Shown here: piece after piece, positions 2,881 to 32,127 of the stretch
Numbering within the stretch: position 1 is the stretch's first letter
Layout: each line of letters starts with the position of its first letter
Origin: Candidatus Fervidifonticultor sextus
GTDB lineage: Bacteria; Sysuimicrobiota; Sysuimicrobiia; Sysuimicrobiales; Humicultoraceae
NCBI GenBank assembly: GCA_031459875.1
Contig: JAVKHQ010000003.1
Coordinates: 1-64,000 of the forward strand
Direction: 5' to 3'
DNA length: 64,000 bases
Translations under genes and position numbers: made by a program
The notes under the pieces: generated by a model
The model's input: the letters and a program-made list of their open reading frames with translations, nothing else
Told to the model about the DNA's origin: nothing
Databases searched by the model: none

Positions 2881-3447
2881 ATGCGACGGGTCATCAGGGG
2901 CATCGACCGGATCAGCGAGACCGTGGGGAAGGCCTTCGCCTGGCTGGCGGTGGCCATGACGCTGGCCATGTCGTTCGAGGTGGTCTCCCGCTACGTCTTC
3001 GACCGGCCCACCACCTGGGCGTTTGACGCCAGTTACATGATGTACGGAGCCTACTTCATGATGGGCTCGGCCTACACCCTGTCCAGGAACGCCCACGTGC
3101 GCGGCGACATCTTCTACCGCAACTTCACCCCCCGCACCCAGGCGCTCATCGACCTGGTCCTGTTCATCGTCGTCTTCTTCCCGGCGATGACCGCGTTTGT
3201 GGTCATCGGGTGGGACTTCTTCCTGCACTCGTTCCGCATCCGCGAGACCTCGCCGCTGAGCCCCTACGCGACCCCAGTCTGGCCCCTCAAGGGGGCCATC
3301 CCCGCCGGCGCCGGGCTGTTGTTGTTGCAGGGGGTGGCCCAGGTCCTCCGCTGCGTCATCGCCATCCGGACCGGGCAGTGGCCCGACCATGAGGAGCACG
3401 GTCTGGAGGAAGCCGAAGCCCTGGAACCGCCCGAGGTGTCAGCGTGA
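2881..3447 (+). CDS. dctQ: TRAP transporter small permease
   Basis: Four TM segments; EVVSRYVFDRPTTWA and HVRGDIFY motifs. Confidence 0.9.
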   Translation: MRRVIRGIDRISETVGKAFAWLAVAMTLAMSFEVVSRYVFDRPTTWAFDASYMMYGAYFMMGSAYTLSRNAHVRGDIFYRNFTPRTQALIDLVLFIVVFFPAMTAFVVIGWDFFLHSFRIRETSPLSPYATPVWPLKGAIPAGAGLLLLQGVAQVLRCVIAIRTGQWPDHEEHGLEEAEALEPPEVSA

Positions 3448-4763
3448 GCCCGGAGGCCCTCGGCATCCTCCAGCTGGTCCTCCTGACCGCGGCCATCTTC
3501 ATCGGCTTCCCCACCGCCTTCACCCTCATGGCGCTGGGTTTCGTCTTCGGCTACCTGGGGTTTGGCCACCTCGTCTTCGACTTGATGGTGCAGCGGGCAT
3601 TCTTCGTGATGACCAACGACGTCCTCATCTCCATCGCCCTGTTCATCTACATGGGCTATGTCCTGGAGCGCTCCGGCATCCTGGACCGGCTGTTCAGGAC
3701 CATCCTGATCCTGGCCGGGTCGCTGCGGGGCTCGCTGGCGCTGGCCACCGTGATCACCTGCACCATCTTCGCCATGGCCACCGGGATTATCGGGGCCTCC
3801 GTGACCATCATGGGGCTGCTGGCGCTGCCACCGATGCTGCGGCTGGGCTACGACAAGCGCCTGGCCTCGGGATCCATCGCCGCCGGGGGCACCCTGGGCA
3901 TCCTCATCCCGCCCAGCGTGCTGCTCATCCTCTATGCGGCCAACGCCGGTGAATCCATCGTCCGGCTGTACATGGCGGCCTTCGTGCCGGGGTTCCTGCT
4001 GGCCGCGCTCTACGTCGTCTACGTCGCGCTGATGGCGTGGTGGCGGCCCGAGATGGGGCCGCCCCTGCCGCCGGAGGAACGGGCCTTCCCCACCCGGCAG
4101 AAGGTCGGGATGCTGCTCACCGGCCTGCTGCCCATCTCCGTCCTCATCCTGACGGTGCTGGGGTCCATCGTGGCTGGCCTGGCGACTCCCACCGAGGCGG
4201 CCGGCGTCGGGGCGCTGGGCGCCATGGTGCTCAGCGCGGCCTACCGACAGCTGACCTGGGAAAACCTCAAGGCCGCGGTGTTCCAGGCCATCCGGACCTC
4301 CAGCATGGTCCTGACCCTTCTGGTGGGATCGGCCATCTTCTCGGCGGTCTTCGCCCGGCTGGGGGGATCCCGGATCATCGAGGACGCCATCGTAGGGCTC
4401 GGGCTCACTCCCCACCAGTTCATCTGGCTGATGATGGTGGTCATCTTCCTGCTGGGTTGGCCCCTGGAGTGGACGGAGATCATCATCATCTTCATGCCGC
4501 TGTTCTGGCCGATCGCCCAGAAGTACGGCATCGACCCCATCTGGCTGGGGGTGCTGGTGGCCATCAACCTGCAGACGGCGTTCTTGAGCCCGCCGGTGGC
4601 GATGGCGGCCTTCTACATCAAGGGGGTGGCGCCCAGAGACGTCCTGCTGAAGGACATCTGGTGGGGGATGGTACCCTTCATGGGCCTCCAGGTGGTGGCG
4701 CTGCTGCTCGTGTACTTCTTCCCGCAACTGGCGCTGTGGCTGCCCAAGCTCGTCTACCGATAG
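3444..4763 (+). CDS. dctM: TRAP transporter large permease
   Basis: Highly hydrophobic; GGTLGILIPPS, ATPTEAA and FLSPP motifs; overlaps the dctQ stop. Confidence 0.92.
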   Translation: MSPEALGILQLVLLTAAIFIGFPTAFTLMALGFVFGYLGFGHLVFDLMVQRAFFVMTNDVLISIALFIYMGYVLERSGILDRLFRTILILAGSLRGSLALATVITCTIFAMATGIIGASVTIMGLLALPPMLRLGYDKRLASGSIAAGGTLGILIPPSVLLILYAANAGESIVRLYMAAFVPGFLLAALYVVYVALMAWWRPEMGPPLPPEERAFPTRQKVGMLLTGLLPISVLILTVLGSIVAGLATPTEAAGVGALGAMVLSAAYRQLTWENLKAAVFQAIRTSSMVLTLLVGSAIFSAVFARLGGSRIIEDAIVGLGLTPHQFIWLMMVVIFLLGWPLEWTEIIIIFMPLFWPIAQKYGIDPIWLGVLVAINLQTAFLSPPVAMAAFYIKGVAPRDVLLKDIWWGMVPFMGLQVVALLLVYFFPQLALWLPKLVYR

Positions 4764-7062: not shown

Positions 7063-7250
7063 CCGCTCCCCCCTGATGACCTGCGGCCGGCCGCTGTTCG
7101 CGACCCTCCGCAGAAGAGGAGCCCCGGCCGACAGCGACTGGGGCTCACGGTTCCGTTCAGTGCGGCTCCGTCGGACCGGGGGCCGCGCACCAGCCTACGT
7201 CCTCCGGCGCCGTCGGCCAGAGGCACGACCCCCGGTCCGGCTCTTGTCCT

Positions 7251-7451
7251 CTACAGCACGGGCAGGAGTCCTGCGGTCCTCCCGGATCGGGCGTGGTGCC
7301 ATGCGGCCTCCATGACCTGGTCCAGGTCCGACAGCATGGGGCCGTAGACAGCCACGACCGTTCCCCTGGGATCGAGCAGGGTCAGGCCGTCCTCCTGCTC
7401 CACGACCTCGTAGCCTTCGGGAAGCCCCGGAAGTACGATCGACCAGCCCAT
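7251..7451 (-). CDS. Small hypothetical protein (66 aa), divergent from the peptide/regulator pair
   Basis: Globular-looking sequence LPEGYEVVEQEDGLTLLDPRGTVVAVY; GC-rich third codon positions; SD GGAG before the ATG. Confidence 0.6.
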   Translation of the reverse strand: MGWSIVLPGLPEGYEVVEQEDGLTLLDPRGTVVAVYGPMLSDLDQVMEAAWHHARSGRTAGLLPVL

Positions 7452-7774
7452 GGAACGCTCCGGCTCGGCGTCCTGGCCGGCGCCTTGCCCAACACGTTAT
7501 GCGTTAGAGGTTCCCCGCTCGAGGCCCGACCCCTTCCGTCCCCATCCGGTAGCGAGGCCAGATGGGTGCCTTCAGCGGACGATCTTCGGCCGACTTCATT
7601 CAGGCTGAAGTTTCGAACCCAGAGGAGGAGGAACTTCACCCGTCGGCGTCGAACTCCCTAACTATCTCCGGGGAGAACCGTTCGGGTTCACGCCCTTCAT
7701 CCCGCCATCACCGGCCCTGCCTGGAGACCCGGGGAGATCCCGGGAGCCGTCTCGTTTTAAGGAGGGGATCCACC

Positions 7775-7897
7775 GTGAGAAAGGCCATTGCGATCGCCTT
7801 CGCCGCGCTCCTCATGCTGTCCGGCGCACCGGCGACCCCAAGCCAGCCGGCGCCGACCGTGGTCGCGGATCACGGTGGCGGCGAAGCGTTCGGCTAG
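7775..7897 (+). CDS. 40-aa secreted pro-peptide, candidate signalling peptide precursor
   Basis: Strong SD AAGGAGG then GTG; MRK-AIAIAFAALLMLSG-APA (Sec signal with A-X-A site) followed by TPSQPAPTVVA-DHGGGEAFG. Confidence 0.75.
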   Translation: MRKAIAIAFAALLMLSGAPATPSQPAPTVVADHGGGEAFG

Positions 7898-7959
7898 GCA
7901 CGACAGGATCTCACCGGCTCTAAGCCGATTGCCCTGGTCGTCGTGGGGGAGGGATATTT

Positions 7960-9252
7960 GTGACGCTTGGCGAGCGCATCCGCCAGGCCCGGAAGAGCCG
8001 CGGCATCACGCAGCGGGCCTTAGCTGGCGGAGATCTGTCCGAGAGTTTCATCAGCATGCTGGAGCACGACAGGGTGCGGCCGTCGCTGGAGACGCTCCGG
8101 GTCCTCGCCGGACGCCTCGGGCTGCCGCTGGCCGAGTTGCTCGACGCCGAGCCGCCGCCCAGCCGGCAGGTCAGGGTCAAGATCGACCTGGGCAACGCGC
8201 TGCTGCGCCAGCACCGGTTCACCGAGGCCATGGAGGCGTTCCAGGAGGCGGAGCGCCGCCTCGCCCCGGGGTCTCCGCTGGAGGCCGTCTTTCGGGTCAC
8301 CATCGGGCTGGGCCAGGCGCTGACGGGCCTGAGCCACTTCGATCTGGCCGAGCAGCATCTGGCCAAGGGCGAAGCCCTGGCGGAAGCCCTCGGGCGGCCG
8401 GACCTGATCGCCCGGGTGGCGAGCGCCGCCGGGCTCCTCTCCCTCCGGAAGCGCGATCTCCCGGCTGCCCGGGATGCCTTCACCCGGGCGCTGGCCGCCA
8501 TCCGGTCCGCAGACCCTGTGGACGCCGAATTCGAGGGGAGGATCCTGATCAACCTCGGTCGCACCTACTCCGACCTGGGGCTGCCGGCGCAGGCGCTCCA
8601 CTGCCTCGAGAGCGCCAGAGCGCGGCTCGAGCCGCTCCACGACCTTGGAGCGCTCGGGCTTTTGCACTTCAACCTGGGCGTGGCCTACGAGCGGCAGCGA
8701 GCCTTCGAGGTGGCCCGGGCCCACCTGGAGAAGGCGGCGGTGCTGTTCGAGGCGCAGGAGAACCTGGGCCTGCTGGCCACCGCGAAGCGGAGCCTGGGGA
8801 TCCTCCTGGTCAACCGGGGGCAGCCCCGCGAAGGAGCCGACCTGCTGGAGCAGAGCATGAGGGTGGCCGTCAGTCTCGCCGACGACCTGGGCCGTGCCCA
8901 GACCCTCACCGAACTCGCGCGCGCCTCGCTGCTGGTGGGGGATCTGGATGCAGCCCGCCGTCAGGCCGAGGAGGCGATCCGCCTGGCCGTCAAACTTCAG
9001 AACCCCACCGAGGCCGCGCGGGCCGAGACGATCATGGCCGCCATCTGCCATCGCGAAGGCCGGTTGGACGAGGCCGCCAACCGGTACGCCTACGCGCTGG
9101 AGCAGTTCGAGCGTCTCCATGCGGCGGGCGAGGTCGCCCGCGTCAGCCGCGAGTACGGGTTCCTGCTCCTGGAACGGGGCGAGGAGGGCAGGGCGGCCCG
9201 CCTGTTCGCCAGGGCGTTCCGCGCCCAGGACGAGGCGGTCGCCGCGCGGTAG
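7960..9252 (+). CDS. XRE-family HTH + TPR-repeat transcriptional regulator (RRNPP-like architecture)
   Basis: N-terminal LGERIRQARKSRGITQRALA...FISMLE...PSLETL HTH, then about 8 TPR-like helical repeats (LINLGRTY, HFNLGVAY). Confidence 0.9.
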   Translation: MTLGERIRQARKSRGITQRALAGGDLSESFISMLEHDRVRPSLETLRVLAGRLGLPLAELLDAEPPPSRQVRVKIDLGNALLRQHRFTEAMEAFQEAERRLAPGSPLEAVFRVTIGLGQALTGLSHFDLAEQHLAKGEALAEALGRPDLIARVASAAGLLSLRKRDLPAARDAFTRALAAIRSADPVDAEFEGRILINLGRTYSDLGLPAQALHCLESARARLEPLHDLGALGLLHFNLGVAYERQRAFEVARAHLEKAAVLFEAQENLGLLATAKRSLGILLVNRGQPREGADLLEQSMRVAVSLADDLGRAQTLTELARASLLVGDLDAARRQAEEAIRLAVKLQNPTEAARAETIMAAICHREGRLDEAANRYAYALEQFERLHAAGEVARVSREYGFLLLERGEEGRAARLFARAFRAQDEAVAAR

Positions 9253-9399
9253 GGACATCGGGCTGCCGGAACCTGTGAAGCAGCCTCCTCAAGGTTGTCT
9301 GAGGTTGCCCTGGCTGCCAAGGGAGGCGAGAGGGGGCTCCACGAGCGCGCATCAGGCGCAATCCGGCCACCGGGGAAGAACTCCCCGTGCCCCATGCCA

Positions 9400-10144
9400 C
9401 GGTCCACAGTGACCACCGATGCCTGCGGCCGATTCTGCGTGTACGTTCCCCGATGGGACGTGGACTGGATCCTGCGCTGGCAGCGCGAGCGCGTCTGCTT
9501 CCCCGATATCTCCGTCAGGCCCTCGATTCGCGATCTGCTGGAGGGCCTCCGGGAGCTGCCCCCGGTCCGCCGGGGAATCTCGCCGATCCGCCGTGATGGG
9601 CCTGTCGTGGCCCCTCTATCGGGTGGTCGACGGCCTGCTGCAGGTCATGTGGACCTCTGCCGACGGCGCCGGGTGGTATCCGGTGCTCGCCGATGCCGAC
9701 GGGTGGTTCTCGCCCCACCTGTTGGTGGAGTGGCCTACCGGGCAGTACGCGAACGGCCTCTACTCCCTGGAGGTCGATCTCGGCAACGTCGCCAAGGCGG
9801 TCATCAGCATCTCGGCGGCGGTCAGGTTCCGCATCGACAAGGCGTCGGCAACCCACCTGCGCTCGGTGACGCTCAGCGGCGGCGGATGCGGCGGGGGCGC
9901 GCCCGTGCTGGTTTCCGCGCTCAGCACCGTGCAGCACTGGCATACGGGCCCTGCCGACAACAGCGTGGGGAACACCGCGGTCTTTGCCCTCTCGGGCGGA
10001 GCGCCCCAAGGCGTCCACCTGCTCGCGTCGGGCCGGGCCTTCAACCCCTCCGGGGGTGACGGGGGCCATCTGGCCGACTGGAACTACGATCCGGTCTACG
10101 CGTACGTGGTCCCGATGCTCCCGGTGGCCGTTGTGAACGCATGA
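9400..10144 (+). pseudogene. Remnant of a larger hypothetical protein (two frames, no start, apparent internal deletions)
   Basis: Protein-like segment TVTTDACGRFCVYVPRWDVDWILRWQRERVCFPD in one frame, and GWYPVLADADGW...HWHTGPADNSV...GRAFNPSGGDGGHLADWNYD in another. Confidence 0.55.
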
Positions 10145-10277: not shown

Positions 10278-11156
10278 ATGCCTCGGATCGTCCCCGACCA
10301 CTGGATGCCACCTGCCGGCATGCAGCGGGTCGTCACGCACTGGACCGGCGGCCTGCACCATGCCAGTCAGCCGGACCGCGAGCACTACCACATCCTGGTC
10401 GAGGGCGACGGTCGCCTCGTGCGGGGCGATCATCCCATTGACGACAACGCTAGCACCGCAGATCAGGACTATGCCGCCCACACCTTCCGGCTCAACACAG
10501 GCAGCATCGGCATCGCGGTCTGCTGCATGGCCGGCGCCATGATGAGTCCGTTCCGTCCGGGTCAGTTCCCCATGACCCGGGAACAGTACGAGGCCCTGGC
10601 GCTGGCGGTCGCCGACCTCTGCGAGCGCTACGATATCGCCGTGACCCCGCAGACCGTGCTGGGCCACGGGGAGGTGGAGGCCATCCTCGGGATCCATCAG
10701 GCCGGCAAGTGGGATCCCCTGGTGCTGCCGTGGGACCCCGCGACCTGGGATGTCAGGCGGACGGGGCGGCAGGTCGGCGACGCGTTCCGGCGGCGCGTCG
10801 GGGAGATGCTGGGCGTTGCGGATCCTGTAGCGCCGGCGGCAGAACCACGGGCGCCGGTCACGGTGATCGTGGACGGCCAGCGGGTCTCGGACGAGGGGAT
10901 CATCCTGGACGCCGGATCGTGGGTGCCGCTGCGGCCGATCGCCGACGCGTTCCACTGGACGGTCCTCCGCATCGGCCAGCGCTCGGCGAGGATTCGTGCG
11001 GACCAGCGCGAGTTCGATGTCACCGCGACCATCAGGGGCGACCGGGGCTACGTCCGGATCACGGAGCTGTCCGCGGCGCTGGGATGGAGCGCGCCGGCCT
11101 GGGATCCGGCGCGCCGAACGGTGCGGATCGCCACCACGTCGGCCGGCGGCGGGTAG
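10278..11156 (+). CDS. N-acetylmuramoyl-L-alanine amidase (Amidase_2/PGRP fold) with C-terminal copper-amine-oxidase-N-like (stalk) domain
   Basis: Zn-amidase motifs HWT, YHILVEGDG, AAHT, NTGSIGI, VLGHGE, KWDP; C-terminal SWVPLRPIADAF and WDPARRTVRI. Confidence 0.85.
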   Translation: MPRIVPDHWMPPAGMQRVVTHWTGGLHHASQPDREHYHILVEGDGRLVRGDHPIDDNASTADQDYAAHTFRLNTGSIGIAVCCMAGAMMSPFRPGQFPMTREQYEALALAVADLCERYDIAVTPQTVLGHGEVEAILGIHQAGKWDPLVLPWDPATWDVRRTGRQVGDAFRRRVGEMLGVADPVAPAAEPRAPVTVIVDGQRVSDEGIILDAGSWVPLRPIADAFHWTVLRIGQRSARIRADQREFDVTATIRGDRGYVRITELSAALGWSAPAWDPARRTVRIATTSAGGG

Positions 11157-11167
11157 GAGGCGGCGGC

Positions 11168-11551
11168 ATGCACCGGCTCCGTGATCGCCTGGGTCTCACC
11201 GTATTCTACGACGGCGCCTGTGCGCTCTGCGTCCGCACCGTCGGATGGCTGGCCCGGATCGACCTGCTGTCGTTGATCCGGTACGAAGACTTCCGGGAAT
11301 CCGGGGTCGTGGAGCGCGCTGGCGTCGACCCCCGTGCGGCGGAGTGCCGGATCCAGTGTGTGACGGCGTCGGGGGCGCGCCGCGAGGGGATCGACGTCGC
11401 CATTCACGTGGCCCTGCGCCTCCCGCCGCTGTGGCCGCTTGTCCCGTGGCTGGCGGCGGCCAGGCTGATCGGTGGGCAGCGGGCCTACGACGCCATCGCG
11501 ACGCGCCGGCCTACGCCAGCAGGTTCACGGGCCAGGTGCCACCAGGGGTGA
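11168..11551 (+). CDS. DCC-family thiol-disulfide oxidoreductase (DUF393-like)
   Basis: VFYDGACALC (DxxCxxC) near the N-terminus; AYDAIATRR near the C-terminus; SD AGGAGG. Confidence 0.85.
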   Translation: MHRLRDRLGLTVFYDGACALCVRTVGWLARIDLLSLIRYEDFRESGVVERAGVDPRAAECRIQCVTASGARREGIDVAIHVALRLPPLWPLVPWLAAARLIGGQRAYDAIATRRPTPAGSRARCHQG

Positions 11552-12659
11552 CCTCCCCCGGCGCACCCGTGGCGGTGAGGCTGGCGGCTTCGCTGGCCGC
11601 CTGCGCCGCCAGGCCGGAATCGCCGGCGGCCTGGGCCGCGCGGCCCAGCGCCAGCAGCGTCTCGCGCTCGGCCTGTTGGTCGCCTCCCTGTCGGGACAGG
11701 GCGAGGGCCCGCCGCAGCGGCTCAATCGCCTCTCGGGCGGCGCCGCGTTCCAGCAGCAGGGTCCCCAGGCTGGCTTCGACCTCGAAGCGGGCTTGGCAGT
11801 CGGAGTCGCCTGCAATGGCCGCGTGGGCCGCCCGCAGGTGCTCGAGCGCCTCGTCGGCGGACCCGTCCAGCCGGCACGCGAGCGCCAGACGGACCAGCGC
11901 GCGGACCCTGAGCGCCTCCAGACGGCTCCGTTCGGCGATGCGGACGGCCGACCGCAGGCGCCGTCGGGCCTGCCGGAGATCTCCGGCCAGGATCGCGGTG
12001 GAAGCCAGACCCAGGTACGCCTGCGCCGCCAGGTCCGGATGACGTGCGGCCTTTCGCACCCGCCCGAGCGTCTGGCGGAAGATGGCGGCCGCCGTCGGGA
12101 GGTCGCGACGGTGCAGCGCGAGCCGGCCGGACGCGAGGGCCGCGCGGGTCTGCAGGCGGAGGCCGAAGCGCGCCGCGATGGCCTCGGCGGCGCGGATCGC
12201 ATCCGCGGCGCCGTCTTCGTCCCCTGAGGCGAGATCGAGGTCGGCCAGCAGCAGGGAGGCCTCCGCCGTCTGGAGGTCGGCGCCGGCCTGCCGGGCGACC
12301 TCAAGGGCGAGGGTGACCGCGCGGCGCGCCGCGTCGAGGCGACGGGTCCGCATGGCCTCCTGCGCCCACGCCAGCAGGCCCTCCAGGGTGGCCAGGTGCT
12401 GGTCGCTGGCGTCGCCGGCCATGGTGGAGAGGCTCATGTGCAGCCGTCGGCCGAGGAAGCGCAGCGTGTCCAACGACGGATCGGCGTATCCGCCTTCCAG
12501 TTGGCTGATGAAGCTCTTGGTGTACTCGGGTCCGGCGAGTTCTGCCTGAGTCAGGTCGAGCTCGCGCCGGCGCCGACGGATGCGCTGGCCCACCGGTGCC
12601 TCTTCGGGCGATGTGTGCCGACGGGAGGGATGGCGTCCCATGCGGGGCTTCACTCCCAC
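11511..12659 (-). CDS. Second XRE-HTH + TPR-repeat regulator (start may be 12641 or 12593)
   Basis: VGQRIRRRRRELDLTQAELA...SFISQLE...PSLDTL HTH followed by Ala/Leu-rich TPR-like repeats. Confidence 0.85.
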   Translation of the reverse strand: MGVKPRMGRHPSRRHTSPEEAPVGQRIRRRRRELDLTQAELAGPEYTKSFISQLEGGYADPSLDTLRFLGRRLHMSLSTMAGDASDQHLATLEGLLAWAQEAMRTRRLDAARRAVTLALEVARQAGADLQTAEASLLLADLDLASGDEDGAADAIRAAEAIAARFGLRLQTRAALASGRLALHRRDLPTAAAIFRQTLGRVRKAARHPDLAAQAYLGLASTAILAGDLRQARRRLRSAVRIAERSRLEALRVRALVRLALACRLDGSADEALEHLRAAHAAIAGDSDCQARFEVEASLGTLLLERGAAREAIEPLRRALALSRQGGDQQAERETLLALGRAAQAAGDSGLAAQAASEAASLTATGAPGEVTPGGTWPVNLLA

Positions 12660-27555: not shown

Positions 27556-28668
27556 ATGGACGAAAGCCGCCTCATCGCCCACGCCCGGGCCCGCCTCATC
27601 GAGCGGCCGGCGTCCAGTCGTTTGACCACCTCGTATGGCGAAGCGCCGGCGGTGCGGCCGCACGTCATCGTGGAGATCGCCACCGCCGGCGGACTTCGGG
27701 GGTTGGGAGAAGCATCTCCTCTACCGGAATTCACCGGCGAGACGGCTGGCAGCGTGCTGTTCGCGCTGAACCAGACGTACCTGGCACCCCTGGTGGGGCG
27801 CGACCCCACGCCCATCGGGGCCATCATGGCTGACCTGGATCGCGCGCTGCCGGGCAACCCCTCGGCGAAGGCTGCGGTGGACATGGCACTGCACGACCTG
27901 GTCGGAAAGCTGCTGGGCGTGCCCGTGGCCACATTGCTGGGCGGCGCGCGCCGGCCGTCCGTGCGACTGGCGCGCGCTGTCGGCATCGGCACCGTGGCCG
28001 AGACCGTGGCCGCAGCCGAACGGTTCGTCGCGGCCGGATTCGGCACCATCAAGATGAAGGTCGGCCAGAATCCCCGCGCCGACGTGGAGCGGGTGCGGGC
28101 CGTGCGGGTCGCAGTCGGCCCGGACGTACAGATCCGCATTGACGGCAACCAGGGCTACGATCCGGCTACAGCCGTCGCCGTGCTCCGGAAGCTCGAATCA
28201 TGCGACCTCGAGTACATCGAGCAGCCCGTCCCGGCGTGGGATCACGCGGGCATGGCATTTGTGCGGCGCGCCACCGGCGTGCGGGTGCTGGCCGATGAGG
28301 CCCTCCACTCCCCTCAAGATGCGCTCACCCTGATTCGGGATGAAGCGGCCGACCTCTTCGCCCTCAAGTTTGTGAAGACGGCAGGCCTGACCCGCGCGCG
28401 GGAGATCGCGGCCATGGCGGATGCAGCCGGCATCGCCTGCGTGGTCATCAGCCCGTTCGAAACGCAGATCGGCGCCGCCGCCGGCCTGCACATGGCCCTG
28501 GCGCTGCCCGCCGGCCGTCACGCGCACGAGCTGACCGTCTTCGCCGCCCAGCCCGAGCTCGCCCGCACCGGCATCCGCCTGGAACGCGACACGTTGATCC
28601 CGGCGCCGCAGCCGGGGCTGGGGGTAGAGAGTATCACGGAGATCGAGCCCGCGGAGGCGGCCCGGTGA
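27556..28668 (+). CDS. Enolase-superfamily (MLE subgroup) racemase/epimerase
   Basis: KMKVG (KxK), DGNQG, EQP, ADE and LKFVK. Confidence 0.88.
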   Translation: MDESRLIAHARARLIERPASSRLTTSYGEAPAVRPHVIVEIATAGGLRGLGEASPLPEFTGETAGSVLFALNQTYLAPLVGRDPTPIGAIMADLDRALPGNPSAKAAVDMALHDLVGKLLGVPVATLLGGARRPSVRLARAVGIGTVAETVAAAERFVAAGFGTIKMKVGQNPRADVERVRAVRVAVGPDVQIRIDGNQGYDPATAVAVLRKLESCDLEYIEQPVPAWDHAGMAFVRRATGVRVLADEALHSPQDALTLIRDEAADLFALKFVKTAGLTRAREIAAMADAAGIACVVISPFETQIGAAAGLHMALALPAGRHAHELTVFAAQPELARTGIRLERDTLIPAPQPGLGVESITEIEPAEAAR

Positions 28669-29612
28669 GCCGGTATCTGCTGGTGCGAGTGTTACAGGGC
28701 GCAGCGCTGTTGTTCATCGTGAGCGCGGTGATCTTCCTGATCGTGCACAGCGCGCCCGGCGGCCCGGCCATCCTGAACAACCCGGACGTGGACCCGCAAA
28801 CCGCCCAGGCCATTGCCCGCGACCTGGGGCTGACCGATCCGGTGCCGGTGCAGTACGCGCGGTGGGTGGGGCGGGCCATCCGGGGCAACCTCGGCCGCTC
28901 GTATCAGCACCAGATCCCGGTGGTCGAGCTCATTGCCAACCGCATTCCCAATACGCTGATCCTGGCGGGGACGGCCCTGGCCCTGGCGGTGCTGGCGGCA
29001 ATCCCCCTGGGCGTCATCTCCGCCGTGCGGCGGTACTCGGCGGTGGACTACGTGGCCACCGTGGGCGCGTTCTTCGGCGTGTCCATCCCGACGTTCTGGC
29101 TCGGCATTATGTTCATCGTGCTCTTCTCGGTCACGTTGGGCTGGCTGCCGTCGGCGGGGATGCGGACGGCCGGCGTGGCGACCGGGGTGGGAGATCTGCT
29201 GCGTCACCTGATCATGCCCGCCGTGGTCCTCTCCACGTTCCCGCTGGCCCAGTTGATGCGCTACGCGCGGTCCAGCATGGTCGAGGTGCTGGGCCAGGAC
29301 TACGTCCGGACGGCGCAGGCCAAGGGTCTGGCCCCCGGGCGGGTGCTGGGCGTGCACGCGCTGCGCAACGCGTTGATCCCGGTGGTGACCGTCCTGGGCG
29401 TGATCATCCCGCGCCTGCTGTCCGGCGCGGTCATCACCGAGACCATCTTCGCCTGGCCCGGCCTGGGCCGGCTGGCGGTGGATGCGGCGGTCACACGCGA
29501 CTATCCGGTCATCATGGGGCTAACCATGACCACGGCCGTGCTGGTCATCGTCTGCAACCTGCTGACCGACGTGGCGTACGTGAGCCTCGATCCCAGGATC
29601 TCGCTGAGGTAG
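28665..29612 (+). CDS. Peptide/nickel ABC transporter permease (DppB-like)
   Basis: QYARW, SIPTFW, QDYVRTAQAKG, HALRNA and ETIFAWPGLG. Confidence 0.92.
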   Translation: MSRYLLVRVLQGAALLFIVSAVIFLIVHSAPGGPAILNNPDVDPQTAQAIARDLGLTDPVPVQYARWVGRAIRGNLGRSYQHQIPVVELIANRIPNTLILAGTALALAVLAAIPLGVISAVRRYSAVDYVATVGAFFGVSIPTFWLGIMFIVLFSVTLGWLPSAGMRTAGVATGVGDLLRHLIMPAVVLSTFPLAQLMRYARSSMVEVLGQDYVRTAQAKGLAPGRVLGVHALRNALIPVVTVLGVIIPRLLSGAVITETIFAWPGLGRLAVDAAVTRDYPVIMGLTMTTAVLVIVCNLLTDVAYVSLDPRISLR

Positions 29613-29615
29613 CCT

Positions 29616-30521
29616 ATGGCTCAGGACGCGATCTCGCCTGCCCTGTCGCCCCTGGCGGTGCCGCGCGGCCGCGGCGGCCTGGCGGTCTTTTGGAGCCGCT
29701 TCCGGCGCAACCGGCTGGCGGTGGCGGCCCTGAGCTTTCTTGTCGCCATCCACCTCGTAGCCCTTGCCGCCGACGCCCTGGCCCCGCACGACCCCGCGGC
29801 GCTGGATCTGCTTAACCAGTTCGCCGATTTCTCCCGCGAGCATCCCCTGGGGACCGACGAGGCCGGTCGTGACGTGCTCTCCCGGTTGATCGTCGGATCG
29901 CGCGTCTCGCTGGCGGTAGGGCTGCTGGCCATGCTGGTCTCGGTCGCCGTCGGCAGCGTGATCGGTGCGCTGGCGGGGTTCTACGGCCGCCTGACCGACG
30001 GGGTCTTGATGCGGGTCACCGACGGGATGTTGACCATCCCCACGTTCTTCCTGGCCCTCCTTGTCCTGGCGGCGTTCGGCTCGAGCCTGACCAACCTGAT
30101 CCTGGTCATCGGGCTCACGGGCTGGATGGTCGTGGCGCGCGTGGTACGGGCCGAAGTGTTGCGCACACTCCCGCAGGAGTTCGTGCTGGCGGCCCGGGCG
30201 GTGGGCTCCTCAGATGGCCGCCTGCTGGTCCGGCACGTGGTGCCCCAGGCCTGGGCGTCGGTCATTGTGGCGGCCACCCTGGGCGTGGCCCATGCGATCC
30301 TGGTGGAGTCGTCGCTCTCCTACCTGGGGCTCGGGGTCCAGCCCCCGACGCCGACCTGGGGCAACATGCTCTCGGGCGCGCAGCAGTATGTGTGGACGAA
30401 ACCTCACCTGGCCATCTATCCTGGGTTGCTGATCATGCTGTGCGTACTCGGCTACAATGTCGTGGGCGATGCCCTGCGGGATGCGCTTGACCCGAGGGCC
30501 AGCCGTGCCCGAATCGCGTAG
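29616..30521 (+). CDS. Peptide/nickel ABC transporter permease (DppC-like)
   Basis: HPLGTDEAGRDVLSR, ESSLSYLGLGVQPPTPTWG and GDALRDALDP. Confidence 0.92.
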   Translation: MAQDAISPALSPLAVPRGRGGLAVFWSRFRRNRLAVAALSFLVAIHLVALAADALAPHDPAALDLLNQFADFSREHPLGTDEAGRDVLSRLIVGSRVSLAVGLLAMLVSVAVGSVIGALAGFYGRLTDGVLMRVTDGMLTIPTFFLALLVLAAFGSSLTNLILVIGLTGWMVVARVVRAEVLRTLPQEFVLAARAVGSSDGRLLVRHVVPQAWASVIVAATLGVAHAILVESSLSYLGLGVQPPTPTWGNMLSGAQQYVWTKPHLAIYPGLLIMLCVLGYNVVGDALRDALDPRASRARIA

Positions 30522-30558
30522 GAGGCGCCTAGTGGCCAACCGTAAAGGGGGTGTGGAG

Positions 30559-32127
30559 ATGAGTCGAGCTCTGGTCTTCGTGCTGGTCGCCGTCCTGGCG
30601 GCCGCGGCGGTACCTGCCGGTGTACGCGCCGGCCCGGCGGGTGGGAACGTCCTGCGCCTGTCCATCAACGGGGATGTGACGATCAATCCCCTGACGTTCC
30701 CGCAGCAGTTGCCGACGACCCAGGTCATCAAGGTGCTGTTCAACACCCTGACCAAGTACAACCCCGGTGACCTCAAGGTGGTGCCCGACCTGGCCACCCT
30801 GTGGACGCCGGCGGAAGCAGGCCGCATCTGGATCTTCAAGCTGCGCCGGGGCGTCACCTGGCACGACGGTCGGCCGTTCACCGCTGCCGACGTGAAGTTC
30901 ACCTTCGACGCCATCGTAGACCCCCGCACCCGAGCGCTGTACCGCACCACGTTTACCGGCCTGCAGTCGGTCCAGGTCATCGACGACTATACGGTCCGGT
31001 TCGAGTTCGACCGCCCCTACCCGTCGCTGCCCATCGTGGTGGGTTTCAACATCCCCATCGTCCCCCGGCACTTGCTGGAGGGCAAAAACCTGGCCGAGAT
31101 GCCCGAGTTCATCCGCAACCCCGTCGGCACCGGCCCCTTCAAGTGGAAGGAGTACGTCGAGGGTTCGCACCTGACGCTGGAGGCTAACCCCAACTACTAC
31201 GCGGGCAGGCCGTCGCTGGACGCCGTGGTCATCAAGATCATCCCGGACATCAACACGGTGGTGGCGCAGCTGCGCACCGGTGAGCTCGATGTGGGTATCA
31301 TCGAGCCGGTCCACCTGGACAGCCTGCGCGGTCAGGGTCACCTGAGGTTCCAGACTACCGAGCTACCCAGCGCCTTCTACATCGCGCTCAACGCCACGCG
31401 CTGGCCGTTCGGCGACAGGCGGGTGCGCCAGGCGCTCATGTACGGACTCAACCGCCACCAGATCGTCGAGCGCATCCTGAAGGGCACGGCCAACCTGGCG
31501 ACCGGCCCCTACGCCAGGGCCTTCGGCAAGTACTACAATCCCAACCTCAAGCCCTATCCCTACGACGTTAACAGAGCCAAAGCGCTGCTGGCAGAGGCCG
31601 GGTTTCGACCCGGGGCCGGCGGCCTCCTCGAGCGGGACGGCCGCCCCCTCTCCTTTGAGCTGATGGTGGACAAGGGGAACCCCACGCGGGAACAGATCGC
31701 GCTGGTGGCCCAGCAGCAGTGGCGGCAGCTCGGTGCCGAGGTAAAGCTCAACGTGGTCGAGTGGTCGGTCTACATCCGCCGCGGCAACCAGCGGCCGGGT
31801 GACTACGATGCGCGCACCAGCTGGCGCATTACCTCGCCCGATCCGGACAAGACGCCCGAATACACCACCGGGGGCACGGTCAACCACTACATGTACTCCA
31901 ACCCCGAGGTGGACCGGCTGATGGCCGAGGCCAGAGCGACCTTCGATCCCACGCTGCGCCCCAGGCTTTACCACAAGATCCAGGAACTGATCTATGACGA
32001 CGTGCCGGTCCTGTGGATCTTCTACAATTCAGAGATCCTGGCCATCAACACGCGTGTGCAGGGGTTCCCGGCCCTTGGGCTGCGCGACGCGTTGACCTGG
32101 CTCAACCTGGTGTCCGTCGCGAAGTAG
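30559..32127 (+). CDS. Peptide ABC transporter substrate-binding protein (SBP family 5)
   Basis: Signal peptide; LRRGVTWHDG, TAADVKFT, PVGTGPF and RVRQAL. Confidence 0.92.
   Translation: MSRALVFVLVAVLAAAAVPAGVRAGPAGGNVLRLSINGDVTINPLTFPQQLPTTQVIKVLFNTLTKYNPGDLKVVPDLATLWTPAEAGRIWIFKLRRGVTWHDGRPFTAADVKFTFDAIVDPRTRALYRTTFTGLQSVQVIDDYTVRFEFDRPYPSLPIVVGFNIPIVPRHLLEGKNLAEMPEFIRNPVGTGPFKWKEYVEGSHLTLEANPNYYAGRPSLDAVVIKIIPDINTVVAQLRTGELDVGIIEPVHLDSLRGQGHLRFQTTELPSAFYIALNATRWPFGDRRVRQALMYGLNRHQIVERILKGTANLATGPYARAFGKYYNPNLKPYPYDVNRAKALLAEAGFRPGAGGLLERDGRPLSFELMVDKGNPTREQIALVAQQQWRQLGAEVKLNVVEWSVYIRRGNQRPGDYDARTSWRITSPDPDKTPEYTTGGTVNHYMYSNPEVDRLMAEARATFDPTLRPRLYHKIQELIYDDVPVLWIFYNSEILAINTRVQGFPALGLRDALTWLNLVSVAK

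Follow-up and report, generated by a model that had tools for sequence, protein, structure and literature searches.

The question raised by this locus is whether a very small open reading frame (ORF) lying directly in front of a regulator gene encodes a peptide signal for that regulator, in a host outside the phylum in which such pairs are placed. In the window, i.e. the whole 64,000-nucleotide stretch of DNA analysed here, positions 7775 to 9252 hold a propeptide gene of 40 codons followed by the gene of a 430-residue protein, which combines a helix-turn-helix (HTH) domain with tetratricopeptide repeats (TPRs). A first-pass annotation, made from the letters alone, had taken the two genes for a quorum-sensing type of pair akin to the RRNPP systems, with the peptide gene in an atypical first position. 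Excerpts of two accounts place RRNPP systems in Bacillota (PMC10075063, PMC12700828). The coupling of the two genes in homologous loci, a host outside Bacillota and the failure of the receptor to reach the threshold of any curated family beyond generic HTH and TPR models all support that proposal, and we consider it probable that the genes form a cassette for peptide signalling on the RRNPP pattern, with NprR-NprX as its closest analogue.

The peptide gene (7775-7897, forward strand) begins with GTG at 7775 and ends with a TAG stop at 7897, which gives 40 codons plus the stop; its recognition draws on the sequence, on conservation, on strand controls and on codon variation. A Shine-Dalgarno sequence, AAGGAGG (7759-7765, forward strand), lies nine bases 5' of the GTG, and similar motifs are also present 5' of the orthologous ORFs. 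The list of ORFs gives this frame merely as the 3' part of a 111-amino-acid ORF (7562-7897), so that the earlier description of a 123-bp, Shine-Dalgarno-led ORF hidden in the tail of a longer frame is correct. The product reads MRKAIAIAFAALLMLSGAPA / TPSQPAPTVVA / DHGGGEAFG. Recognisable by eye are two basic residues, a hydrophobic core of 12 residues, an A-P-A site, a spacer rich in Pro and Thr, and a polar tail. Residues 1-20 (7775-7834, forward strand), composed of MRK, the hydrophobic core and APA, are the predicted Sec signal peptide, and the layout of basic n-region, hydrophobic core and A-x-A site recurs in all orthologues. The C-terminal DHGGGEAFG (7868-7894, forward strand) aligns with repeated units of the relatives and is a single, divergent copy of such a unit and the candidate signal. 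With 40 amino acids the propeptide falls within the size window of RRNPP_detector (10-100 amino acids), and its relatives measure 36-110 amino acids, apart from a few longer multi-repeat forms. From the stop of the peptide gene to the start of the receptor gene there is a gap of 62 bp (7898-7959), and this arrangement, with both genes on the same strand, is kept in relatives.

In DNA rich in G+C spurious ORFs abound, and the small ORF might accordingly be nothing but a chance frame in an intergenic region. Relatives of the receptor allow this to be judged. In a whole-genome search at E 1e-20 or better, at least one was found in 77 of the phylum's 94 genomes and 27 of its 31 genera (tallies that take in the unpublished genomes G016 and G024), with up to four copies per genome, while none of the 12 genomes of family f5 has one at that threshold. 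The 650 nt 5' of the receptor were then searched in 66 loci, with those of G016 and G024 and one fragment set aside, for an ORF of 18-150 codons that has a K or R close to its N-terminus, 11 or more hydrophobic residues in a row and a Shine-Dalgarno-like motif. An ORF passing this filter precedes the receptor in 48 of the 66 loci; grouped by identity to the receptor of the window, the figures are 15/16 at 69-97%, 6/7 at 48-50%, 16/16 at 43-48% and 11/27 at 39% or less. Thus, 37 of the 39 loci at 43% identity or more pass, and inspection of the two misses brings the mini-ORF to 39/39: one of them (L025) has merely 207 nt of upstream DNA, in which five SAGHGDGGV units are nevertheless visible, and in the other (L047) the ORF is present and fails the Shine-Dalgarno pattern alone. 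On the loci with at least 400 nt available, the same filter accepts 47/63 upstream sense strands, 0/63 upstream antisense, 3/64 downstream sense and 0/64 downstream antisense strands. Crude as the filter is, the difference between 47/63 and 0/63 places the mini-gene beyond chance. Start, Shine-Dalgarno motif and frame are kept in all 39 close loci, where insertions and deletions comprise whole repeat units, and together with the synonymous variation described below this effectively refutes the chance-frame explanation: the mini-gene is more than a chance ORF. These counts favour the prediction that homologues of the regulator would be preceded by small signal-peptide ORFs, the C-termini of which, as described below, change with the receptor clade. 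In one genome (G007; L015/L033) the orthologous receptor contains one in-frame TAG, and the peptide gene is intact, with two GHGDIEALGGW units; the receptor may be decaying, the strain may be 'signal-only', or the assembly may be in error.

Behind the signal peptide, the relatives carry between one and about ten tandem copies of a short unit, the sequence of which changes with the receptor clade. In the closest clade the unit is (A)GHGDGELL, with spacers such as NGGGW; at about 50% receptor identity it is AGRGDMDSF or AGHPDADFF, at 43-48% (A)GHGGGELL, often at the very C-terminus, and at 35-39% P(A/Q)GDDNG(P)G. The copy in the window, DHGGGEAF(G), has H-G-G-G-E in common with the GHGGGELL type, yet its receptor sits in the GHGDGELL clade. 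At 38-39% identity, three loci beyond those that pass the filter (L073, L074 and L077) contain a long ORF made up of six to about ten units, and the propeptides of L073, L074 and L076 (genomes G070 and G069) possess some 9-10 units of the PAGDDNGGS type. Genome G069 also has two receptor genes 9 kb apart, one with a long repeat gene and the other without. In paralogue groups at 28-33% identity, 14 of 20 further loci pass the filter, 13 of them credibly; each has a motif of its own, often duplicated within one propeptide (AGDTWPGGG x2, APELPGEN x2, AGDIGPGS x2, AGDVGPGDS, GDDPPDSD). No spacer separates the units of L052 and L053 (GHGGAELL-GHGGAELL-GHGGGELL), which makes an octapeptide, (D/G)HG(G/D)GE(A/L)(F/L), the likely signal unit. 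The initial proposal of (A)DHGGGEAFG or a sub-fragment as the mature signal therefore holds as regards the C-terminal position, and its nonamer is to be shortened to an octapeptide.

The codons of 39 units from 13 loci vary at synonymous positions: the first Gly is encoded by GGG 10, GGA 4, GGC 12 and GGT 13 times, His by CAC 30 and CAT 6 times, Leu by four different codons, and the other Gly residues are also synonymously variable. Given this variation and the insertion or deletion of whole units, the peptide sequence is under selection. In a rival reading, the secreted peptide would have an extracytoplasmic job of its own, e.g. metal binding, and the HTH-TPR protein would regulate it in response to some other ligand. 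The GHGDGE and GHGGGE units do contain His and acidic residues, multiple copies of the units would raise the binding capacity, and a cut behind the conserved Ala would put His in second place, an arrangement known to bind Cu(II) and Ni(II). Units of the paralogous propeptides, however, lack His altogether (AGDTWPGGG, APELPGEN, PAGDDNGGS), the pair has no conserved neighbour that is a metal transporter or chaperone, and the change of the unit with the receptor clade would be left unexplained, so that we regard such a function as distinctly unlikely. Repeated core units behind a leader are known, too, from some precursors of ribosomally synthesized and post-translationally modified peptides (RiPPs), in which case the regulator would be that of a biosynthetic pathway. 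Here, however, the leader has the look of a normal Sec signal peptide, and the flanks, which vary between genomes, include no conserved modifying enzyme; a RiPP-like precursor is very improbable.

The receptor (7960-9252, forward strand; start preceded by GGGGGAGGG) is the 430-residue protein 62 bp downstream that had been described as an XRE-type HTH with TPRs, and this description is confirmed: the HTH occupies residues 3-60 and nine TPRs residues 67-429, an assignment based on Pfam, on an AlphaFold2 model and on fold matches. In Pfam, HTH_3 matches residues 7-60 (E 1.4e-9), and TPR_12 (E 9.5e-26), TPR_2 and TPR_1 match at E 1e-25 to 1e-12. The model, built with 34 relatives, has a mean pLDDT of 93.6; in it, an HTH of five helices is joined by a short linker to 18 helices that make up the nine TPRs. 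Its best structural matches in VIA-align include RapI (4i1a; Z 31.4, 353 residues aligned, root-mean-square deviation 3.9), which is level with the TPR domain of eukaryotic LGN (Z 31.4), followed by Pins (30.3), Rap-phi105 with its peptide (29.4), the Rap of pLS20 (26.3), RapH (25.7), NprR-NprX (4gpk; 25.5, 341 residues aligned), AimR (22.1 and 20.4) and PlcR-PapR (2qfc; 20.4, over HTH and TPRs); Rap, NprR, AimR and PlcR account for eight entries among the top 27 rows. A profile of the family, compared with the PDB, finds PlcR at E 4.7e-13 (receptor residues 2-267 against PlcR 6-271), the sole HTH+TPR protein among the 60 best matches. With the HTH alone, DdrO-type XRE domains are closest, and PlcR and ComR appear lower in the list. 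The first-pass annotation had also pointed to Asn residues in LINLG and HFNLG as peptide contacts. These motifs are present, but Asn at this position belongs to the general TPR consensus, and the argument was set aside as generic to TPRs.

At fifteen positions the receptor of the window and a twin at 97% identity depart from a residue that no fewer than 11 of 12 other close receptors share, and this change coincides with that of the unit end from LL to AF. Five of the substitutions affect positions otherwise conserved throughout the phylum (F159L, G273A, V275A, L300M, D348N); with T157A, a further change specific to the lineage, we take them as candidate specificity positions and nothing more. 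A single co-folding job of the receptor alignment with the 40-residue propeptide gave a score of 0.01 and a mark of 0.32, which weighs neither way on binding.

Upstream of the peptide gene, an alignment of 15 regions reveals sequence-invariant boxes about 120-200 nt 5' of the start. Box 1 (CTTCAG, 7570-7575, forward strand) is a direct copy of a half-site, of which TTCAG is conserved in alignments of 15 and 13 loci. It is followed by an inverted repeat, ACTTCA-N7-TGAAGT (7593-7611), and by GGAACTTCA-N9-GTCGAA (7630-7653, forward strand), a third half-site copy plus invariant box within invariant alignment columns (AGGAACTTCA at 7629-7638 and CGTCGAA at 7647-7653), which possibly belongs to the promoter region. 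The exact palindrome occurs once in the 3.05-Mb genome; both this uniqueness and its conservation make it a candidate operator for a dimeric HTH protein. Its shorter form, TTCA-N7-TGAA, occupies the corresponding position in 13/15 loci of the closest clade (A), 4/7 of clade B (about 50% identity), 7/16 of clade C (43-48%) and 0/27 of those with an identity of 39% or less. All 15 clade-A loci and all 7 clade-B loci have GGAACTT at a distance of 34-35 nt behind the inverted repeat.

A reading of the conserved leader as structured RNA was rejected: RNAalifold yields -2.24 kcal/mol, with six invariant pairs and no compensatory change, and Rfam returns nothing relevant. Since compensatory changes are lacking, the boxes are better read as candidate protein-binding DNA, with half-sites spaced 11 bp apart, as would suit a dimeric HTH. 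An extracytoplasmic-function (ECF) type of promoter was likewise discarded, as the 12-nt spacing of GGAAC...CGTC is too short for known ECF promoters, and scans of 7200-9500 for sigma-70 promoters and intrinsic terminators gave none of either. Elsewhere in the genome, the palindrome with up to one mismatch per half-site has 12 matches, four of them non-coding, which is no enrichment given a crude mask that counts 27.5% of the genome as non-coding; GGAACTTCA occurs 34 times, mostly within genes. The only other intergenic site of the third-box kind seen, AGGAGGAACTTCACC-N8-TTCGAA, lies on contig C17 (around 8129, reverse strand), some 70 nt before the gene of a small membrane protein.

These elements can be joined into a working scheme in which the 40-residue product would be exported by Sec and lose its signal peptide, whereupon proteases would release a C-terminal unit of about eight residues, here DHGGGEAF(G). 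One of the many Opp/Dpp-type transporters could take the peptide back up, to be bound by the concave face of the nine-TPR domain of the adjacent cytoplasmic regulator. Binding may alter the occupancy of ACTTCA-N7-TGAAGT and the related upstream boxes and perhaps, as a guess, activate transcription in a positive feedback. The signal may act between cells.

Whether a peptide could do so depends on the envelope of the host. The window corresponds to contig C23 in a genome of 3.05 Mb and 67 contigs, 96% complete and with 70.1% G+C, in agreement with the roughly 70% G+C assumed beforehand. The closest named record is a metagenome-assembled genome (MAG) of Candidatus Fervidifonticultor, with 97% identity over the receptor, which NCBI places in Ca. 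Sysuimicrobiota (formerly CSP1-3) of the kingdom Bacillati. As the nearest named record falls in this phylum, the host is not a member of Bacillota, which answers the taxonomic point that the first-pass annotation had left for checking. The genome encodes LpxC (C5:2031-2831, 282 bits) and an Omp85/BamA-type protein (C34:4285-5169, 115 bits), both above curated cut-offs. Of the phylum's 94 genomes 86 have LpxC, and of the 54 high-quality ones 51 do (again including G016 and G024). Together, these genes indicate a lineage that most likely bears an outer membrane with lipopolysaccharide (LPS). LpxC and BamA occur here although NCBI assigns the phylum to Bacillati, and the main text of two CSP1-3 genomics papers does not mention an outer membrane.

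For peptide import, the genome has 42 matches to SBP_bac_5 within 3 Mb, an unusually large peptide-uptake repertoire, and an Opp/Dpp-like operon lies in the window itself (28665-32127), beside an M28 peptidase and an AroM-like gene; judged from gene content, they indicate a capacity for uptake alone.

In such a cell the peptide could be a private, periplasm-confined signal, by which the cell reports to itself on secretion, periplasmic proteolysis or uptake, with the receptor binding the peptide all the same. The LpxC and Omp85 genes and the many peptide-binding proteins of periplasmic type would agree with this, and a unit, with about 800 Da, comes close to or exceeds what porins usually let through. 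Clade- and paralogue-specific units, however, are what selection for discrimination between producers would be expected to yield, and amplification to about ten units fits the raising of an external concentration. On balance we think a purely periplasmic signal unlikely, and retain the RRNPP-like cassette, with a peptide that may act between cells, as the favoured explanation.

Several observations nevertheless weigh against that explanation. In a host with LpxC and Omp85, a Sec-exported peptide would first arrive in the periplasm, which renders its diffusion from cell to cell uncertain. The match of the receptor fold is unspecific: LGN and Pins not only tie with RapI but also head the Foldseek list, in which Rap proteins follow below them at E ~1e-7, and in sequence searches generic and designed TPR proteins far outscore PlcR. 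Beyond the generic Pfam models for HTH and TPR, no curated family cut-off (NCBIfam) is reached, a result that at the same time speaks for the first-pass proposal. No second operator site was found in the genome, and hence no regulon emerged. A search for sequencing runs yielded four of DNA type from a single study, one of them possibly the source, and none of RNA. Two of the four paralogues in the genome are without a peptide gene, and among the loci at 39% identity or less, 13 of 27 have none upstream of the receptor. Finally, most loci come from related MAGs, and the counts of loci and codons are therefore not counts of independent events. In eight of the 13 loci without a peptide gene (L066, L067, L069, L070, L072, L087, L089 and L090; 31-38% identity), a conserved tRNA-like stretch, so called from the look of its three-frame translation alone, lies directly upstream of the receptor and could point to an insertion context of mobile elements.

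The paralogues within the same genome illustrate both situations. On contig C51 there is a second cassette, composed of a peptide gene at about 2753-2887 (44 amino acids, ending in VAGGDDADGG) and, after a gap of 191 nt, a receptor at 3079-4341 that is 29% identical to that of the window. The window itself contains a second, convergent HTH-TPR gene (11511-12659, reverse strand; identified by Pfam), the product of which has 382 amino acids and is 30% identical to the receptor. No signal-peptide ORF was found beside this paralogue, nor beside the one on contig C1. Many loci of family f1 retain the gene at 11511-12659 downstream of the cassette; it lies just upstream of homoserine dehydrogenase and may encode an orphan receptor that listens to the same or to a foreign peptide.

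How does the cassette compare with the known peptide systems? The signature used by RRNPP_detector asks, in the excerpt of its description, for a propeptide of small size that carries a Sec signal, and for a receptor of 250-500 amino acids that contains TPRs and is encoded next to the propeptide (PMC10075063). Four of these five features are present here, with a receptor that, at 430 amino acids, lies inside the size range, and the fifth, the Sec signal, is predicted by eye. The census made with these features, as its excerpt describes it, covered only 7,974 genomes of Firmicutes and 47,982 of viruses (PMC10075063), and the RRNPPA evolution papers and a 2026 review speak, in excerpts, of Bacillota, Firmicutes or Gram-positive bacteria. 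Titles and the first lines of abstracts disclosed no RRNPP system outside Bacillota or in Gram-negative hosts with an outer membrane, and the word 'quorum' is absent from the main text of two CSP1-3 genomics papers. While the published RRNPP/RRNPPA hosts are Bacillota or their mobile elements, the host of the cassette is a member of Ca. Sysuimicrobiota with outer-membrane genes, and the cassette further departs from the Bacillota families in having its peptide gene upstream on the same strand, tandem octapeptide units and an operator of its own.

In architecture, the best analogue is NprR-NprX of the Bacillus cereus group, which also combines an XRE-type HTH with nine TPRs in about 420-430 amino acids (Z 25.5 over 341 residues to 4gpk). 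The NprX propeptide, likewise about 40 amino acids long, is of Sec type, with the signal in its C-terminal part. By contrast, nprX lies downstream of the receptor gene, whereas the peptide gene of the cassette lies upstream, its units are tandem in relatives and its non-Bacillota host has LPS/outer-membrane genes; nor is any sequence-family membership detectable for the receptor. PlcR-PapR, also of the Bacillus cereus group, resembles the cassette in the profile match (E 4.7e-13) and in a structural alignment across both HTH and TPRs (Z 20.4), and it has a palindromic operator and an autoregulated peptide. PlcR, however, has five TPRs in 285 amino acids, papR is downstream and the operator sequence is unrelated. 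Rap proteins, to which the TPR domain aligns best among these systems (RapI at Z 31.4, peptide-bound Rap-phi105 at Z 29.4), lack an HTH and act on response regulators, with the Phr gene downstream and a distribution in Bacillota and their phages. They do offer a precedent for repeated units within one propeptide, since Phr-phi105 and Phr-phi3T are described, in an excerpt of the source, as propeptides with identical or pseudo-repeated pheromone units that are cut by extracellular proteases (PMC11343458). AimR-AimP, the arbitrium system of Bacillus phages, is similar in its HTH and TPR-like superhelix (Z 22.1 and 20.4) and differs in that it belongs to phages and mobile elements and has aimP downstream, whereas the cassette is chromosomal with conserved housekeeping flanks. 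AimP is a Sec-exported propeptide, with a C-terminal hexapeptide that is imported by Opp. A tblastn search of 72,556 plasmids with the receptor, at E 1e-10, gave no match. Common descent with the Bacillota RRNPP families is neither shown nor excluded.

A wider view is possible, which we put forward tentatively and with somewhat more doubt than belief: signalling of the RRNPP kind may be widespread and diversifying in other Bacillati/Terrabacteria, including a phylum with LPS and outer membrane, with several distinct 'languages' of tandem-unit peptides per genome that operate either through the outer membrane or as a loop from periplasm to cytoplasm. As leads in this direction, look-alike HTH+TPR clusters in the ESM Atlas come mainly from Dormibacterota, Actinomycetota, Chloroflexota and Sysuimicrobiota. 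If this were true, the known range of peptide communication would extend to an uncultured hot-spring and soil phylum rich in chemoautotrophs, and the question would arise how peptides exit and re-enter a diderm cell. It would also provide testable, short and unmodified ligands, readable from DNA, for organisms that resist cultivation; with a defined unit, its cognate receptor and a candidate operator at hand, tests in vitro are possible without growing the organism.

The flanks of the cassette consist of a flavin reductase, a 66-amino-acid ORF, an amidase, the second HTH-TPR gene and homoserine dehydrogenase, and they are variable between genomes. The 66-amino-acid ORF (7251-7451, reverse strand; G+C fraction at third codon positions 0.84) is divergent from the cassette, shares its regulatory region and matches no family in Pfam or NCBIfam. 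By tblastn it also precedes the cassette in eight loci, which, from their matching identities and mirrored coordinates, we judge to be duplicate fetches of four other genomes; it is a possible target and could be the regulated output of the cassette. Downstream of the receptor follow a poorly conserved ORF of 241 amino acids without family (9419-10144, forward strand) and an Amidase_2 protein (10278-11156, forward strand), the C-terminus of which resembles Cu_amine_oxidN1 below the cut-off (E 2e-4, 21.6 versus 24.2 bits) and which recurs downstream of the cassette in several genomes.

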